Source: a virus (taxonomy: Duplodnaviria; Heunggongvirae; Uroviricota; Caudoviricetes). Taken from it: a DNA stretch of 20,368 bases. Shown in pieces: positions 1 to 6,475 of this stretch. The DNA is taken from the IMG/VR virus record IMGVR_UViG_2563366803_000006. One strand, given 5' to 3'. Position 1 is the stretch's first letter. Each line of letters begins with the position of its first letter. The position numbers and the translations under genes are program-made. The notes under the pieces were generated by a model. That model saw nothing but the letters and a program-made list of their open reading frames with translations, had not been told where the DNA came from and did not search any database.

Positions 1-930
1 CTATGATAACCGCGCATTCAACATGGCTATCTGTTCGTCGTTCATGTCATCAATCCACATACCGTAAATTTCATACACCATCTGCGCAGTTTCATGCCCC
101 ATTTGGCTGGCTATAAATGCCGGGTTCGCTCCTGCCGTCAACAGCCAGCAGGCAAAAGTATGCCGCGTATGGTACGGATTACGGCGGCGAATACCAGCAC
201 GTTTTACTGCTGCATTCCACCTTGCCCCCAAACTGCTTACCGAGTAATAAGGTTTTTGTTTTCCGTTACACACCCTGGGCATGAAAACAAAATGCAGTTT
301 TTGCTTTTCGGTTCTGCCGTACTCCCGATGATAAAAGGTGATTTCGCTTTTGCGATGATGCCCGGTCAGTTTGTATTGCTCCTTCAGTGCTTCAAGAGCA
401 GGCTGCAGTAGTGTTACTGTCCGGATCCCGGCATTTGTTTTTGGGGGACCGAACATATCAAGTATCGTCAGGTTTCTTCTGACATTCACTATTCCCTTTT
501 CGAGATCCACATCCTCCCACGCCAGAGCTGCCAGTTCCCCGTGACGAAGTCCTGAGTAAACTGCAAATTTCCACATGTTCTGGCTCTGTCCTTTTTCACT
601 TTCCATTAATGCATTGAATTCTGTTTTAGATAACGGATCAGGCTTTATTCTGTTTCGCTGTAATTTTTTTACTCCTTCAAATGGTTTGGTTGATATAAAT
701 CCCGACTGATACGCAAAACGTAACAGCGAACAGAGCAGGGCGATATAGTTATCAACTGTGCGCACGGTTCTTCCTTTTTTGTTGGATCTTGGATTATCCA
801 GGTAAAGCGTTTCTCCATGCAGCAGTTCATTCCGGTAGTTTAAGATATCGCTATAACGAATATGTGATATCAGGGTACTTTCACAAATTATTATTCTGAG
901 TGTTTTTAATTGTGATTTCGTTTTCTTCAT
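1..930 (-). CDS. Phage-type tyrosine recombinase (integrase); catalytic domain intact, 5' end probably truncated by IS1
   Basis: 309-codon minus-strand ORF ending with TAG at 3..1. Translation carries catalytic-domain signatures (LRHGE Arg box, HTRHT His-x-x-Arg box, VYEIYG Tyr region). Frame stays open upstream of the Met at 930 as far as the IS1 end at 965. Confidence 0.85.
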   Translation of the reverse strand: MKKTKSQLKTLRIIICESTLISHIRYSDILNYRNELLHGETLYLDNPRSNKKGRTVRTVDNYIALLCSLLRFAYQSGFISTKPFEGVKKLQRNRIKPDPLSKTEFNALMESEKGQSQNMWKFAVYSGLRHGELAALAWEDVDLEKGIVNVRRNLTILDMFGPPKTNAGIRTVTLLQPALEALKEQYKLTGHHRKSEITFYHREYGRTEKQKLHFVFMPRVCNGKQKPYYSVSSLGARWNAAVKRAGIRRRNPYHTRHTFACWLLTAGANPAFIASQMGHETAQMVYEIYGMWIDDMNDEQIAMLNARLS

Positions 931-2589: not shown

Positions 2590-2977
2590 ATTCCTTTCTC
2601 AGGACAAAAAAAGACACGAGCATACAGGAATACTCGTGGGACAACGTCCTTTAGATAGCAATTTGCGAGAGGGTGAAAAGTAGCGCGGTCGTCGGATTAA
2701 GACCGCGGGACAAAGTCCATGAAGAATAATAAGTATTGGCCCCTTCTGGGGACATGTTCATACTACTAAGCTTCAGAAGTGGTTTAAATCATCAAATTAA
2801 CCTTAATTTTCGATAAGTCTTATTTCATTTCTTTGCGCCACACCTGGCGCGCATCAAATAACGCCACGCAAAGGGCATCTGCGGATGCCGGTGCTTTTGA
2901 CGGGGTGTTTTTTACGGGCCGCTGGTGGCCATTTTTTGTTTCCATTACACAGCGCCCGCATCTGCGAGGTGGGGGTT

Positions 2978-3193
2978 ATGAAATCCATGGATAAGTTAAC
3001 AACAGGTGTCGCCTATGGCACCTCCGCAGGCAGTGCTGGCTACTGGTTTTTACAGTTGCTCGATAGAGTCACGCCCTCACAGTGGGCAGCAATAGGTGTG
3101 CTGGGTAGTCTGGTGTTTGGCCTGTTGACGTATCTGACAAATCTTTATTTCAAGATTAAAGAAGATAAGCGTAAGGCTGCACGGGGAGAGTAA
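2978..3193 (+). CDS. Class II holin (pinholin, phage 21 S-like) with dual-start motif
   Basis: 71-aa product [26 protein letters not shown]... with two TM segments and charged C-terminus. Met1-Lys2-Ser3-Met4 dual start. Strong SD GAGGTGGGGG directly upstream of ATG 2978. Recalled similarity to phage 21 S. Confidence 0.85.
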
Positions 3194-3197
3194 TTCA

Positions 3198-3542
3198 ATG
3201 ACTCAAAACTATGAACTGATTGTGAAAGGGATCCGCAATTTTGAGAATAAAGTTACGGTAACTTTAGCGTTACGGGACAAAAAACGCTTTGACGGTGAAA
3301 TTTTAGACCTGGACATCTCGCTGGACCGTGTTGAAGGTGCCGCGCTGGAGTTTTATGAGGCAGCAGCCAGAAGGAGCATCAGACAGGTCTTCCTGGATGT
3401 TGCTGCCGGGTTATGTGAAGGGGATGAGCAGTCACCGGAAAAGCGCCCCATAATTTTAGAGGCGCAGGGTGTGTGGATAACCTACAAAGGAAAACTGCCG
3501 GGAAGAATTACTGGTTCACTGAAGACTCCGCCGAAATGGTAA
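3198..3542 (+). CDS. Hypothetical protein inserted between holin and endolysin
   Basis: 114-codon ORF starting 5 nt after the holin stop, with a G-rich SD-like tract upstream. Soluble-looking, no recognised motif. Position matches that of unknown-function genes found between S and R in some lambdoid prophages. Confidence 0.6.
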   Translation: MTQNYELIVKGIRNFENKVTVTLALRDKKRFDGEILDLDISLDRVEGAALEFYEAAARRSIRQVFLDVAAGLCEGDEQSPEKRPIILEAQGVWITYKGKLPGRITGSLKTPPKW

Positions 3543-3600
3543 TTTCACCAGCATATTTTTCTTCCAGTAATACCGCCAGCCACTTGAAAGAATTTTGTTG

Positions 3601-3780
3601 TTACTGGGACCATTTGGGGTTGAGTGATTCAAGCTGGAGCGATGCCAGTGTTGGTTGCATTTGTTCCTTGGGAATTGAGAATGCCAGATATGAAAATGCG
3701 ACAGTAAGGGCATTTACATCATCCCGAAGCTTGGAAATGCAGTCGAGCAACTCCTGTAGAGAAATGGTGCTATTGTCCAT
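3601..3780 (-). CDS. Small hypothetical protein (59 aa), convergent with the upstream unknown gene
   Basis: ATG at 3780-3778 preceded by GAGAGGA SD-like sequence at good spacing; product MDNSTISLQELLDCISKLRDDVNAL... looks helical. Not recognisable from sequence alone. Confidence 0.4.
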   Translation of the reverse strand: MDNSTISLQELLDCISKLRDDVNALTVAFSYLAFSIPKEQMQPTLASLQLESLNPKWSQ

Positions 3781-3885
3781 AAACAATCCTCTCTATTGTA
3801 TTTAACTATTCCTTGCCTGATTCAACAGGCCGGGACAGATAAACATATCCAGGGTTCAGAAACCGATAAATCCTGATAAATATCC

Positions 3886-4383
3886 ATGAACGCAAAAATC
3901 AGATACGGCCTGTCGGCTGCCGTTCTGGCACTGATTGCCGTCGGTGCGCCTGCGCCTGATATTCTCGACCAGTTTCTGGATGAAAAAGAAGGTAACCACA
4001 CAACGGCATACCGCGATGGTTCCGGTATATGGACCATCTGTCGTGGTGCCACAATGGTGGATGGTAAGCCCGTCATACCGGGAATGAGGCTGTCGAAGGA
4101 AAAATGCGACCAGGTTAACGCTATTGAACGTGATAAGGCGCTGGCATGGGTGGAGCGCAATATTAAAGTACCACTGACCGAACCACAGAAAGCGGGTATA
4201 GCGTCATTTTGTCCCTATAACATTGGCCCCGGTAAGTGTTTCCCGTCGACGTTTTATAAGCGGCTGAATGCCGGTGATCGTAAGGGTGCATGCGAGGCGA
4301 TTCGCTGGTGGATAAAAGATGGTGGGCGCGATTGCCGCATACGTTCAAATAACTGCTATGGACAGGTTATTCGTCGTGACTAG
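3886..4383 (+). CDS. SAR endolysin (T4-lysozyme-type muramidase with N-terminal signal-anchor-release domain)
   Basis: 165 aa. N-terminal weakly hydrophobic Ala/Gly-rich segment ([17 protein letters not shown]), then E-x8-D-x5-T catalytic spacing ([16 protein letters not shown]). Sits downstream of a pinholin. Confidence 0.85.
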
Positions 4384-4415
4384 GAAAGCGCATTAGCCTG
4401 TTGGGGGATAGATCA

Positions 4416-4880: not shown

Positions 4881-5017
4881 AATCTTAACTACAATATGAT
4901 TCATTTTGATGATTGTTTCATAAGGAACAGTGAAGTAAGATCTAAGAGGAGTTAAATTTTATACAGTATAATCATAATATTGCAGCAAGGTGGTTATAAT
5001 TGAAAGAATATTTAGAT

Positions 5018-6475
5018 ATGAATACATCTCATGTAAGAGTTGTTACTCATATGTGTGGGTTCCTGGTTTGGCTCTATAGTCTTTCAATGTTGCCACCAAT
5101 GGTTGTAGCATTGTTTTATAAAGAAAAAAGCCTGTTCGTTTTCTTTATAACTTTCGTTATATTTTTTTGTATTGGTGGCGGAGCGTGGTATACAACTAAG
5201 AAATCTGGCATTCAATTACGTACCCGTGATGGGTTTATTATAATTGTAATGTTTTGGATTTTGTTTTCTGTTATTAGTGCATTCCCTTTATGGATTGACT
5301 CAGAACTTAATTTAACGTTCATTGATGCTCTGTTTGAAGGGGTTTCTGGAATAACAACAACAGGAGCAACTGTAATTGATGATGTTAGTTCATTACCTCG
5401 GGCATATTTGTACTATCGGTCACAGTTAAATTTTATAGGTGGTTTAGGAGTTATTGTTCTGGCGGTTGCTGTATTGCCATTATTGGGTATTGGTGGTGCA
5501 AAGCTTTATCAGTCAGAAATGCCGGGGCCATTTAAGGATGACAAACTCACTCCCCGCCTGGCCGATACGTCACGGACACTGTGGATAACTTATTCTTTAT
5601 TAGGTATTGCTTGTATTGTCTGTTATAGACTTGCAGGAATGCCTTTGTTTGATGCTATTTGTCACGGGATTTCCACAGTTTCGCTTGGTGGTTTCTCAAC
5701 TCATAGCGAGAGTATCGGATATTTTAATAACTATTTGGTTGAGCTGGTGGCTGGTTCTTTTTCCCTGCTATCGGCTTTCAACTTCACTCTTTGGTATATT
5801 GTTATTAGCAGGAAAACGATAAAACCTTTAATCAGAGATATTGAACTTCGTTTCTTTCTGTTAATAGCCTTAGGGGTGATCATTGTTACCTCTTTCCAGG
5901 TCTGGCATATAGGTATGTATGACTTGCATGGAAGTTTTATTCATTCGTTTTTTCTTGCCAGCTCCATGCTCACTGATAATGGTTTAGCTACGCAGGATTA
6001 TGCAAGCTGGCCCACGCACACGATAGTGTTTTTGCTGTTGTCAAGTTTCTTTGGGGGATGTATAGGTTCAACTTGTGGTGGAATTAAGTCACTTCGATTT
6101 CTTATACTTTTCAAACAAAGCAAACACGAGATAAATCAGCTTTCTCATCCCAGAGCGTTGTTGAGTGTAAATGTAGGAGGGAAGATAGTTACAGATCGTG
6201 TAATGAGGTCTGTATGGAGTTTCTTTTTTCTTTATACTCTCTTCACGGTGTTTTTTATACTGGTGTTAAATGGTATGGGATATGATTTTCTTACATCATT
6301 TGCAACAGTGGCTGCATGTATTAATAATATGGGATTAGGTTTTGGGGCTACTGCATCGTCATTCGGAGTGCTTAATGACATTGCAAAATATTTAATGTGC
6401 ATAGCTATGATTCTTGGTCGCCTTGAAATTTATCCTGTTATTATATTGTTTTCAGGTTTTTTTTGGCGCTCCTAA
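5018..6475 (+). CDS. trkG: TrkG/TrkH-family K+ uptake membrane protein (prophage-borne trkG)
   Basis: 485 aa from ATG 5018; multi-pass membrane protein with TrkH-type motifs (GITTTGATV, GIGGAKLYQSEMPGP, GSTCGGIK). Markedly AT-rich coding sequence. Alternative TTG start at 5000 has a better SD (AAGGTGG). Confidence 0.9.
   Translation: MNTSHVRVVTHMCGFLVWLYSLSMLPPMVVALFYKEKSLFVFFITFVIFFCIGGGAWYTTKKSGIQLRTRDGFIIIVMFWILFSVISAFPLWIDSELNLTFIDALFEGVSGITTTGATVIDDVSSLPRAYLYYRSQLNFIGGLGVIVLAVAVLPLLGIGGAKLYQSEMPGPFKDDKLTPRLADTSRTLWITYSLLGIACIVCYRLAGMPLFDAICHGISTVSLGGFSTHSESIGYFNNYLVELVAGSFSLLSAFNFTLWYIVISRKTIKPLIRDIELRFFLLIALGVIIVTSFQVWHIGMYDLHGSFIHSFFLASSMLTDNGLATQDYASWPTHTIVFLLLSSFFGGCIGSTCGGIKSLRFLILFKQSKHEINQLSHPRALLSVNVGGKIVTDRVMRSVWSFFFLYTLFTVFFILVLNGMGYDFLTSFATVAACINNMGLGFGATASSFGVLNDIAKYLMCIAMILGRLEIYPVIILFSGFFWRS

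Follow-up and report, generated by a model that had tools for sequence, protein, structure and literature searches.

Organization of the lysis cassette

The window, which is the whole 20,368-nt stretch of viral DNA analysed here (IMG/VR record IMGVR_UViG_2563366803_000006), originates from an E. coli Rac-type lambdoid prophage. At the locus under study, the genes are arranged in the order holin, ydfR-family ORF, minus-strand ORF, SAR-type lysozyme, Rz/Rz1, trkG and ynaK. This arrangement is that of an ordinary phage-21-type lysis cassette, composed of a holin, a YdfR-family gene, a SAR lysozyme and Rz/Rz1. The features discussed below are located as follows.

1 to 930, minus strand: intR
About 1021 to 1718: IS1
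2978 to 3193, plus strand: class II (phage 21 S-type) holin, 71 aa (Pfam PF04971, E = 4.8e-35)
3198 to 3542, plus strand: YdfR-family (DUF1327) gene, 114 aa (Pfam PF07041, PHROG 406)
3473 to 3805, plus strand: 'shadow' ORF of 110 aa, antisense to ORF90 and sharing wobble positions with it
3508 to 3780, minus strand: ancestral full-length 90-aa frame, termed ORF90 (RefSeq WP_000370546.1)
3601 to 3603, minus strand: premature TAA stop, Gln60 to stop (3603 is A in the window and G in the closest relative)
3601 to 3780, minus strand: 59-aa ORF, or 61 aa from an upstream TTG (PHROG 2411, E = 6.8e-38, profile positions 1-59 of 90)
3781 to 3885, no strand: divergent intergenic region of 105 nt between the ORF90 ATG and the lysozyme ATG, 38% G+C
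3787 to 3793, minus strand: Shine-Dalgarno-like GAGAGGA, 6 nt 5' of the ATG
3886 to 4383, plus strand: SAR-type phage lysozyme (Pfam PF00959, E = 4.5e-24)

The stop codon of the holin gene occupies 3191-3193, and the protein begins with MKSMDK, a dual-start motif. Its counterpart in the 99.9%-identical genome NZ_CP080260 is annotated as essD. The holin forms the context of the finding and lies outside the insert. The initial annotation of this locus described a 114-codon ORF closely following the holin gene and a convergent 59-aa ORF with a good Shine-Dalgarno sequence, and the coordinates of both check out. The 114-codon ORF starts at 3198, 5 nt beyond the end of the holin stop codon, and the minus-strand ORF carries GAGAGGA at 3793-3787, 6 nt ahead of its ATG at 3780.

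The 114-aa ORF is a YdfR-family gene

The 114-aa ORF is an ordinary YdfR that is native to its slot. Its product matches Pfam PF07041 with an E value of 8e-42 (141.8 bits, compared with a cut-off of 25) over profile positions 1-92 of 93, and PHROG 406 with an E value of 2.5e-67. The RefSeq label in the closest genomes is 'YdfR family protein', and residues 1-74 share 80% identity with YdfR of the K-12 Qin prophage (BLASTP). The AF2 model comprises three strands and a helix for residues 5-74, followed by a tail with a pLDDT below 50. Members of the YdfR family have lengths of 103/104, 112, 114, 116, 176 and 183 aa. The tail ...ITYKGKLPGRITGSLKTPPKW of the 114-aa ORF is common to the 114-, 116-, 176- and 183-aa variants, and most YdfR variants retain the same tail up to ...GSLKTPP and diverge beyond it.

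The position of the gene between a class II holin and a lysozyme follows the same order in K-12 (essQ-ydfR-rrrQ) and in all related loci, and in lambdoid prophages DUF1327/YdfR genes normally occupy the slot that separates the class II holin gene from the SAR lysozyme gene. Like the 114-aa ORF, K-12 Qin ydfR lies directly after the class II holin gene and before the lysozyme gene. Compared with Qin YdfR, the 114-aa ORF exhibits certain discrepancies. Its tail (aa 75-114) is longer and unlike the Qin tail, and the ATGA shared by Qin ydfR and rrrQ has no equivalent in the window, where ydfR does not overlap the lysozyme start. The convergent pair had been proposed to be inserted together between the holin and endolysin genes. 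This proposal fails, because ydfR is a resident of the slot and only the minus-strand gene with its flanks constitutes the insert. The statement that neither product has a recognisable motif is incorrect for the 114-aa ORF, which belongs to DUF1327/YdfR; the minus-strand ORF has no Pfam or NCBIfam match.

In the literature on ydfR/DUF1327, an RNase E interactome paper was the sole source of functional data found (PMC13232886). Residues 1-72 of K-12 YdfR bind the N-terminal catalytic half of RNase E, and the protein co-purifies with RNA and alters few transcripts upon overexpression (PMC13232886). The K-12 homologue may bind RNA.

The 59-aa ORF as a nonsense allele of a 90-aa gene

The nearest relative of the window, NZ_CP080260, differs from it at one base in 421 nt, namely A in the window and G in the relative at position 3603. 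This change (G to A on the plus strand, C to T on the coding strand) turns CAA, which encodes Gln60, into TAA; the differing base was compared directly in NZ_CP080260 only. The 90-aa form of the nearest relative matches PHROG 2411 with an E value of 4.3e-59. In the nearest genomes, RefSeq records the product as the 90-aa 'hypothetical protein' WP_000370546.1, and one UniRef entry names it 'Ybl58'.

A set of 195 related loci from IMG/VR and GenBank, which align without gaps over window positions 3400-3900, was used for comparison. The Gln60 stop is found in the window only. Three further loci each have a nonsense mutation of their own, and approximately 98% are intact, a fraction that is skewed towards intact copies because the loci were found by protein similarity. 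In all loci with a readable ydfR, this gene encodes 114 aa ending in PPKW and overlaps ORF90 by 35 nt, and the lysozyme ATG lies 105 nt from the ORF90 ATG in all loci but one. The overlap is formed by the last 35 nt of ORF90 (3508-3542) and the 3´ end of ydfR. The 58 nt (3543-3600) that had been noted between the two stops are thus present in the window and limited to it, because the intact gene overlaps ydfR in relatives. Among 5,426 complete E. coli genomes, 1,120 (approximately 21%) contain at least 80% of segment 3414-3875. The best identity is 99.8%, and therefore none of the 5,426 genomes holds this segment unchanged.

Judged from these sequence comparisons, the 59-aa ORF is a nonsense-truncated, pseudogene-like allele of a 90-aa gene and not a native product. 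The length of 59 aa given for the gene in the initial annotation is private to the window and is replaced by 90 aa in relatives. The identity of both genes, together with the truncated status of the minus-strand copy, can be assigned with high confidence. The window copy is probably a decaying or loss-of-function allele, and the stop at 3601-3603 could be a sequencing error.

The state of the prophage was also considered. From position 1733, the window is 99.3% identical to an intact relative, and the match begins 38 nt past the relative's Q-like gene. It follows from this junction that the early region is missing in its entirety, the late-gene activator included; it was lost through IS1. The 1733 junction was found in no complete genome of the collection searched. 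Prophage decay of this kind is in keeping with the nonsense allele of the accessory gene.

Coding status of the 90-aa frame

A lone 59-codon ORF is not above chance, because the window contains dozens of ORFs of similar size. The reality of the minus-strand gene rests on conservation and not on the presence of an ORF. In the part of ORF90 that is clear of the ydfR overlap, the dN/dS of the ORF90 frame is 0.30 across 58 haplotypes, compared with 1.06 and 1.51 for the other two same-strand frames in the same haplotypes. The alignment of the 58 ORF90 haplotypes is gap-free, and the variable sites are distributed as 18/14/37 over codon positions 1/2/3, position 2 being the least variable. The plus-strand frame at 3473-3805 also has a low dN/dS in these haplotypes (0.24), because its third positions coincide with the wobble positions of ORF90. 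This frame was rejected as a real gene and is a shadow ORF, since one or two stops interrupt it in the commonest clades.

As assessed by its pattern of substitution, the 90-aa frame is shown to be a real protein-coding gene under purifying selection. The initial annotation had treated the conservation of the minus-strand ORF and of its Shine-Dalgarno sequence in relatives as the point on which its proposal would stand or fall. The ORF is kept there under purifying selection, and a GAGG core is present in all upstream haplotypes. The opposite reading, in which the ORF would be a chance or shadow ORF in spacer or decayed DNA, could appeal to the frequency of chance ORFs of approximately 60 codons in the window, to the stop in this copy, to the promoter scan described below, which found none, and to the absence of a Pfam or NCBIfam family. 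It is already contradicted by the dN/dS of 0.30 and the least variable position 2, by an ORF that is intact in approximately 98% of the 195 loci across clades of 76-100% identity, by the stops in the competing plus-strand frame and by distant homologues of the same length with a gap-free core, and it is hardly credible.

A variable slot between ydfR and the lysozyme gene

The K-12 Qin slot, in which ydfR overlaps rrrQ (ATGA), has no ORF90. Compared with Qin, homology is lost at approximately 3413 (ydfR codon 72) and regained at approximately 3876, just before the lysozyme ATG, where it restarts at ATAAATATC-ATG. The lysozyme gene thus forms the right edge of the variable slot. In an O22:H8 strain, 36 nt separate the gene for a 112-aa YdfR from the lysozyme gene that follows, and the extra DNA in the window extends from approximately 3531 to 3875. 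In an O145:H28 strain, the slot contains a 183-aa YdfR (PHROG 2091) that is convergent with an 86-aa antisense ORF, ORF86 (PHROG 2572), with an overlap of 53 nt. ORF86 was rejected as a homologue of ORF90, the hhalign probability being 1%. In an Stx2k phage, the holin-ydfR-ORF90 block is joined to a different holin/endolysin set.

The Qin, O22, O145 and Stx2k comparisons indicate that ydfR is resident and that the junction preceding the lysozyme gene is a variable site accepting alternative antisense genes. In terms of these alignments, the insert is one small accessory gene acquired between ydfR and the lysozyme gene. The G+C content is 43.7% in the gene and 38.1% upstream, compared with 47-52% in the flanks, a modest difference.

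The predicted ORF90 protein and its truncated forms

The AF2 model of ORF90 comprises helices at residues 8-34, 38-52 and 59-76 and a disordered tail, with a mean pLDDT of 77. The protein is acidic (pI 4.4) and has no signal sequence, and its peak 19-residue Kyte-Doolittle mean of 0.88 reveals no membrane-spanning stretch. The ORF90 product is thus predicted to be a soluble, acidic three-helix protein. These properties lend no support to the small toxin-like protein that had been listed among the candidate roles, the product being acidic, soluble and devoid of a transmembrane segment. Searches of Pfam and NCBIfam with the 59- and 90-aa forms gave no family match; the best match, NigD_C (E = 0.12), was dismissed. 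No entry at E <= 10 was returned when the PDB was searched with a profile of the broad family alignment. A scan with the PADLOC defence models covered ORF90, the 114-aa YdfR, ORF86 and three distant homologues; the sole match was a weak one, of the distant homologue P0077 to PDC-M71B (E = 0.0049, 13.6 bits).

The window allele retains predicted helices 1 and 2, which form the N-terminal two thirds, and loses predicted helix 3 (59-76). Within ORF90, dN/dS is 0.44 for codons 60-79, compared with 0.26 for codons 1-59.

Truncated forms were also observed in other strains. Alleles of 56 aa that end at Lys56 are present in the protein collection in four sequence backgrounds. The DNA retrieved for two of them reveals four distinct events at Trp57: TGG to TGA, TGG to TAG and two indel variants. 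The Gln60 stop of the window lies three codons beyond this truncation site, and frameshifted 94-aa forms and an IS1 insertion were also found among the alleles. The 59-aa form might not be a simple loss of function, because truncations after helix 2 recur independently. Decay that is tolerated, a mutational hotspot and selection favouring a two-helix form are each possible causes of the clustering of stops after helix 2.

Distant homologues and their surroundings

A profile search of 1.84 billion representative proteins returned only 20 matches. Eight of these are distant homologues of 64-97 aa (seven of them 81-97 aa) with 25-55% identity, which share the gap-free core ELL..I..LR..VN.L..AF.YL.FS...E.....T(L/I).(S/A)L.FES.N. 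Seven distant homologues were scanned independently, and all seven match PHROG 2411.

The homologues are found in several surroundings. The homologue of an Atlantibacter hermannii prophage, like that of a metagenomic contig, is located antisense between tail genes M and L, where it is convergent with an ORF of 71 or 60 aa and overlaps it by 7-15 nt. In a lambda-like contig, the homologue is opposite in strand to every late gene called there (those for portal and terminase and two unnamed ORFs) and lies 1.1 kb from the terminase genes. Two homologues stand alone, one adjoining a heavy-metal ATPase gene and one an autotransporter gene. Six Serratia species and an Enterobacterales MAG share the chromosomal synteny pyrC-dinI-X-bssS-solA, in which X is the homologue. 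The location of homologues in tail clusters and on the Serratia chromosome favours a portable accessory gene over a lysis-specific role. A homologue search with the 71-aa Atlantibacter partner identified six clusters and no DUF1327 member. The convergent partners were rejected as relatives of YdfR, BLASTP and Pfam being negative and a shuffle test being marginal for one of four.

Expression signals and comparison with known systems

A consensus scan for a sigma-70 promoter upstream of ORF90, in the window and three to four related loci, gave nothing better than shuffles. The sole conserved promoter-like element, which does not exceed chance in the consensus scan, is composed of TTGAAT (3825-3820) and TACAAT (3800-3795) separated by 19 nt. 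Its spacing is poor, and it ends 14 nt before the ORF90 ATG; an mRNA from this element would begin inside or after the Shine-Dalgarno sequence. No terminator-like hairpin was observed downstream of ORF90 in the window and related loci, no convincing hairpin was found by an inverted-repeat search between the two genes, and an Rfam scan of 2,700-4,400 identified no RNA family.

A classic moron is defined by its own promoter and terminator, and lambda bor and HK97 gp15 are reportedly morons carried by prophages. Lambda bor reads against the late operon. Like these two genes, ORF90 is small and is present or absent among closely related lambdoid genomes. It further resembles lambda bor in its location in the late region beside the lysis genes and its antisense orientation, and its G+C content is modestly below that of its neighbours. 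In contrast to bor-type morons, ORF90 has no identified promoter or terminator, its 3´ end overlaps the neighbouring gene, and its product has no lipoprotein or membrane signal. The 'classic moron position' of the initial annotation is borne out in part: presence or absence with sharp boundaries and retained flanking homology is observed in the comparisons with Qin, O22 and O145, and neither a promoter nor a terminator, two defining features of a moron, was identified in the scans.

Type I toxin-antitoxin systems with convergent, 3´-overlapping transcripts include the prophage-borne txpA/ratA and bsrG/SR4 of B. subtilis. The locus shares with these systems two small convergent units with overlapping 3´ ends in a prophage. 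It differs in that neither window product is a small hydrophobic membrane peptide, both frames encode conserved proteins, and no RNA family match exists at the window locus.

The minus-strand ORF is a member of the PHROG 2411 family (WP_000370546.1). The architecture of the window locus is that of the 1,120 complete E. coli genomes described above, and the window copy differs in being cut at codon 60 of a family profile of 90 positions. PHROG 2411 has no Pfam model, and a literature search on the family found no paper. A search on ybl58 and on antisense morons in lysis cassettes likewise found no paper, transcript or protein data.

Interpretation and alternative explanations

The best explanation is that the minus-strand ORF is a moron-type accessory gene antisense to the late operon, here truncated in a decayed prophage, to which a probability of approximately 0.65 is assigned. 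The PHROG 2411 gene, encoding 90 aa when intact, reads against the late operon, and the 3´ end of intact copies reaches 35 nt into ydfR. It would form no part of the lysis machinery, and the window copy would yield at most a helix 1-2 hairpin. The mode of action is a more tentative matter, and a soluble binder made in the lysogen is possible rather than probable. Of the modes considered, the ORF90 product would most likely act by binding another protein, and not by catalysis or membrane insertion, because it is predicted to be soluble, acidic and three-helical. Because its orientation opposes late transcription, as does that of lambda bor, the gene would most likely be expressed from a weak promoter of its own in the silent prophage and would benefit the lysogen.

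An RNA-level role, in which the antisense transcript would damp leaky holin expression in the lysogen by collision or double-stranded RNA and the ORF would be secondary, appears unlikely. The convergent orientation suits such a role, and an antisense transcript would run into ydfR and the holin gene, because no terminator-like site lies between ORF90 and the latter. A 3´ overlap with the upstream late-strand ORF also recurs in independent contexts: it measures 35 nt for intact ORF90, 53 nt for ORF86 and 7-20 nt in four unrelated loci. What is conserved, however, is the protein: it is under purifying selection, and its core persists at 25-40% identity, a divergence at which the DNA can no longer be aligned. 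Stand-alone chromosomal homologues have no convergent partner, and neither the promoter scan nor Rfam gave a match. A lysis regulator, with the 90-aa protein acting as a cytoplasmic antiholin-like holin binder or as a modulator of the SAR lysozyme, had been listed as a candidate role and is improbable to a greater degree. The location between the holin and endolysin genes would agree with it, as would the rigid linkage in E. coli to a phage-21-type holin and to the SAR lysozyme, the latter at a distance of exactly 105 nt in every locus except one. The gene nevertheless opposes the late transcript encoding the lysis proteins, the holin has its own dual-start antiholin motif (MKSMDK), many related cassettes have no such gene, and the product has no membrane segment or signal sequence. 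The occurrence of homologues in tail-gene clusters and on the non-phage Serratia chromosome weighs against this role.

The consistent pairing of ORF90 with the 114-aa YdfR ending in PPKW, in all readable E. coli loci, raises the question of whether the two genes function together, for example with ORF90 neutralising or directing YdfR, within a portable, convergent cassette that would add a tail to the upstream ORF at each site of entry. The tail of the 71-aa Atlantibacter partner (FSIKGNIFSDQIFGDLKKPPSY) resembles the YdfR tail (ITYKGKLPGRITGSLKTPPKW), and relatives of this partner keep the N-terminal 46 aa and carry other tails. The tail similarity is nevertheless weak: its score is reached by 30 of 2,000 shuffles, four partners in all were tested in this way, and neither BLASTP nor Pfam detects a similarity between the partner and YdfR. 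The YdfR tail up to LKTPP is also present in the 116-, 176- and 183-aa variants, and the 183-aa variant, the only one of these with its locus read, is not accompanied by ORF90. YdfR is widespread without ORF90, ORF90 homologues occur without a partner, and physical overlap alone accounts for the linkage, so that a functional pair is very doubtful. A broader proposal is that PHROG 2411 would represent a hitherto unrecognised class of small effectors, expressed in the lysogen and carried on a portable antisense cassette. The cassette would repeatedly enter late operons (at the lysis slot and the M/L tail junction), the Serratia lineage would have been domesticated beside dinI, and the truncations (four at Trp57 and that at Gln60) would mark selection for two helices or escape from a costly immunity or abortive activity. 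As a whole, this proposal is speculative and has a low probability.

Implications

The finding leaves the knowledge of lysis unchanged. It corrects the annotation of the locus: the 59-aa ORF is read as a pseudogene-like allele, the 114-aa ORF as YdfR and the 110-aa plus-strand ORF as a shadow. It also marks the ydfR-lysozyme junction of phage-21-type cassettes as a slot for alternative antisense accessory genes. Strains with intact alleles exist, for example ATCC 8739, and the analysis provides a sound coding-potential case for an uncharacterised family that is present in approximately 21% of complete E. coli genomes.

Recurrent truncation of ORF90

ORF90, the ancestral 90-aa minus-strand frame of PHROG 2411, is truncated recurrently at its codon 57 (window 3610-3612), where at least four independent mutations on differing sequence backgrounds end the product at Lys56 (L228-L233 among the comparison loci). 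These events comprise TGG to TGA, TGG to TAG and two indel variants. The Gln60 stop of the window lies three codons beyond the codon-57 truncations, and both positions are grouped immediately past helix 2, the second of the three helices predicted (AF2) for the protein.

Homologues of PHROG 2411 also occur in other settings. In six Serratia species, a homologue (X) is syntenic in the chromosome and flanked by dinI and bssS, in the order pyrC-dinI-X-bssS-solA. This synteny indicates that the phage family has a fixed cellular member adjoining an SOS gene. The chromosomal homologues are 92-98 aa long (L216, L217 and L221-L227, from Serratia spp. and an Enterobacterales MAG). At two further loci, tail genes M and L are separated by a homologue that faces a small partner ORF in convergent orientation:

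L208, 5261-5476: Atlantibacter hermannii prophage
L215, 687-869: second such locus

The N-terminal 46 aa of the small partner are kept among its relatives, and its tail is variable. In the variant adjoining the PHROG 2411 homologue, the tail …IKGNIFSDQIFGDLKKPPSY is similar to the YdfR tail …YKGKLPGRITGSLKTPPKW, a likeness that is statistically weak.

The ydfR-lysozyme slot and its flanks

The variable slot between ydfR and the lysozyme gene has a different occupant in O145:H28 (L218, NZ_CP007133):

L218, within 1785-2544: 183-aa YdfR variant, PHROG 2091, flagged partial by RefSeq
L218, within 1785-2544: 86-aa antisense ORF, PHROG 2572, WP_001306174.1

The two are convergent and overlap by 53 nt. 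The 86-aa ORF is unrelated to ORF90 and is a second antisense accessory gene at this slot.

The holin N-terminus (window 2978-2989) reads MKSMDK, with a dual start at Met1 and Met4 as in phage 21 S, in which one gene yields both antiholin and holin; the lysis cassette therefore already carries its own timing control. Across the lysozyme start, a block of approximately 60 nt (window 3838-3900) shows almost no variation in any haplotype, and no recognisable Shine-Dalgarno sequence was seen upstream of the lysozyme ATG (..CCTGATAAATATCCATG). In the K-12 prophage Qin, the same bases form the end of ydfR, which is coupled to the lysozyme gene via ATGA, whereas 343 nt separate the ydfR stop from the lysozyme gene in the window.

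The following features flank the cassette:

1-930, minus: intR, the Rac integrase gene, abutting IS1
about 1021-1718: IS1, beside intR
2048-2120 and 2127-2198: two tRNA genes upstream of the holin, Thr and Gly by the annotation of a relative
5000-6475: trkG, potassium transporter gene carried by Rac, directly after Rz/Rz1

From position 1733, the window continues with DNA that is found 38 nt past the Q-like antiterminator gene in the intact relative, a closely similar prophage that retains the early region. Since intR-IS1 is joined to DNA beyond this gene, the early region from xis to Q has been wholly deleted. The IS1/1733 junction was absent from every complete E. coli genome of the collection searched. 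The tRNA position upstream of the holin is typical of lambdoid late-leader tRNA clusters. trkG, a known large accessory gene in Rac-type prophages, has a G+C content of 37.7%, compared with 47% for the window.

A shadow ORF opposite ORF90

A further frame lies antisense to ORF90 and has wobble positions in common with it:

3473-3805, plus: 110-aa ORF

Its dN/dS of 0.24 is seemingly low. The frame was rejected as a gene, given these common wobble positions and the stops that interrupt it in most clades. It is a textbook shadow ORF, which could misdirect gene callers.
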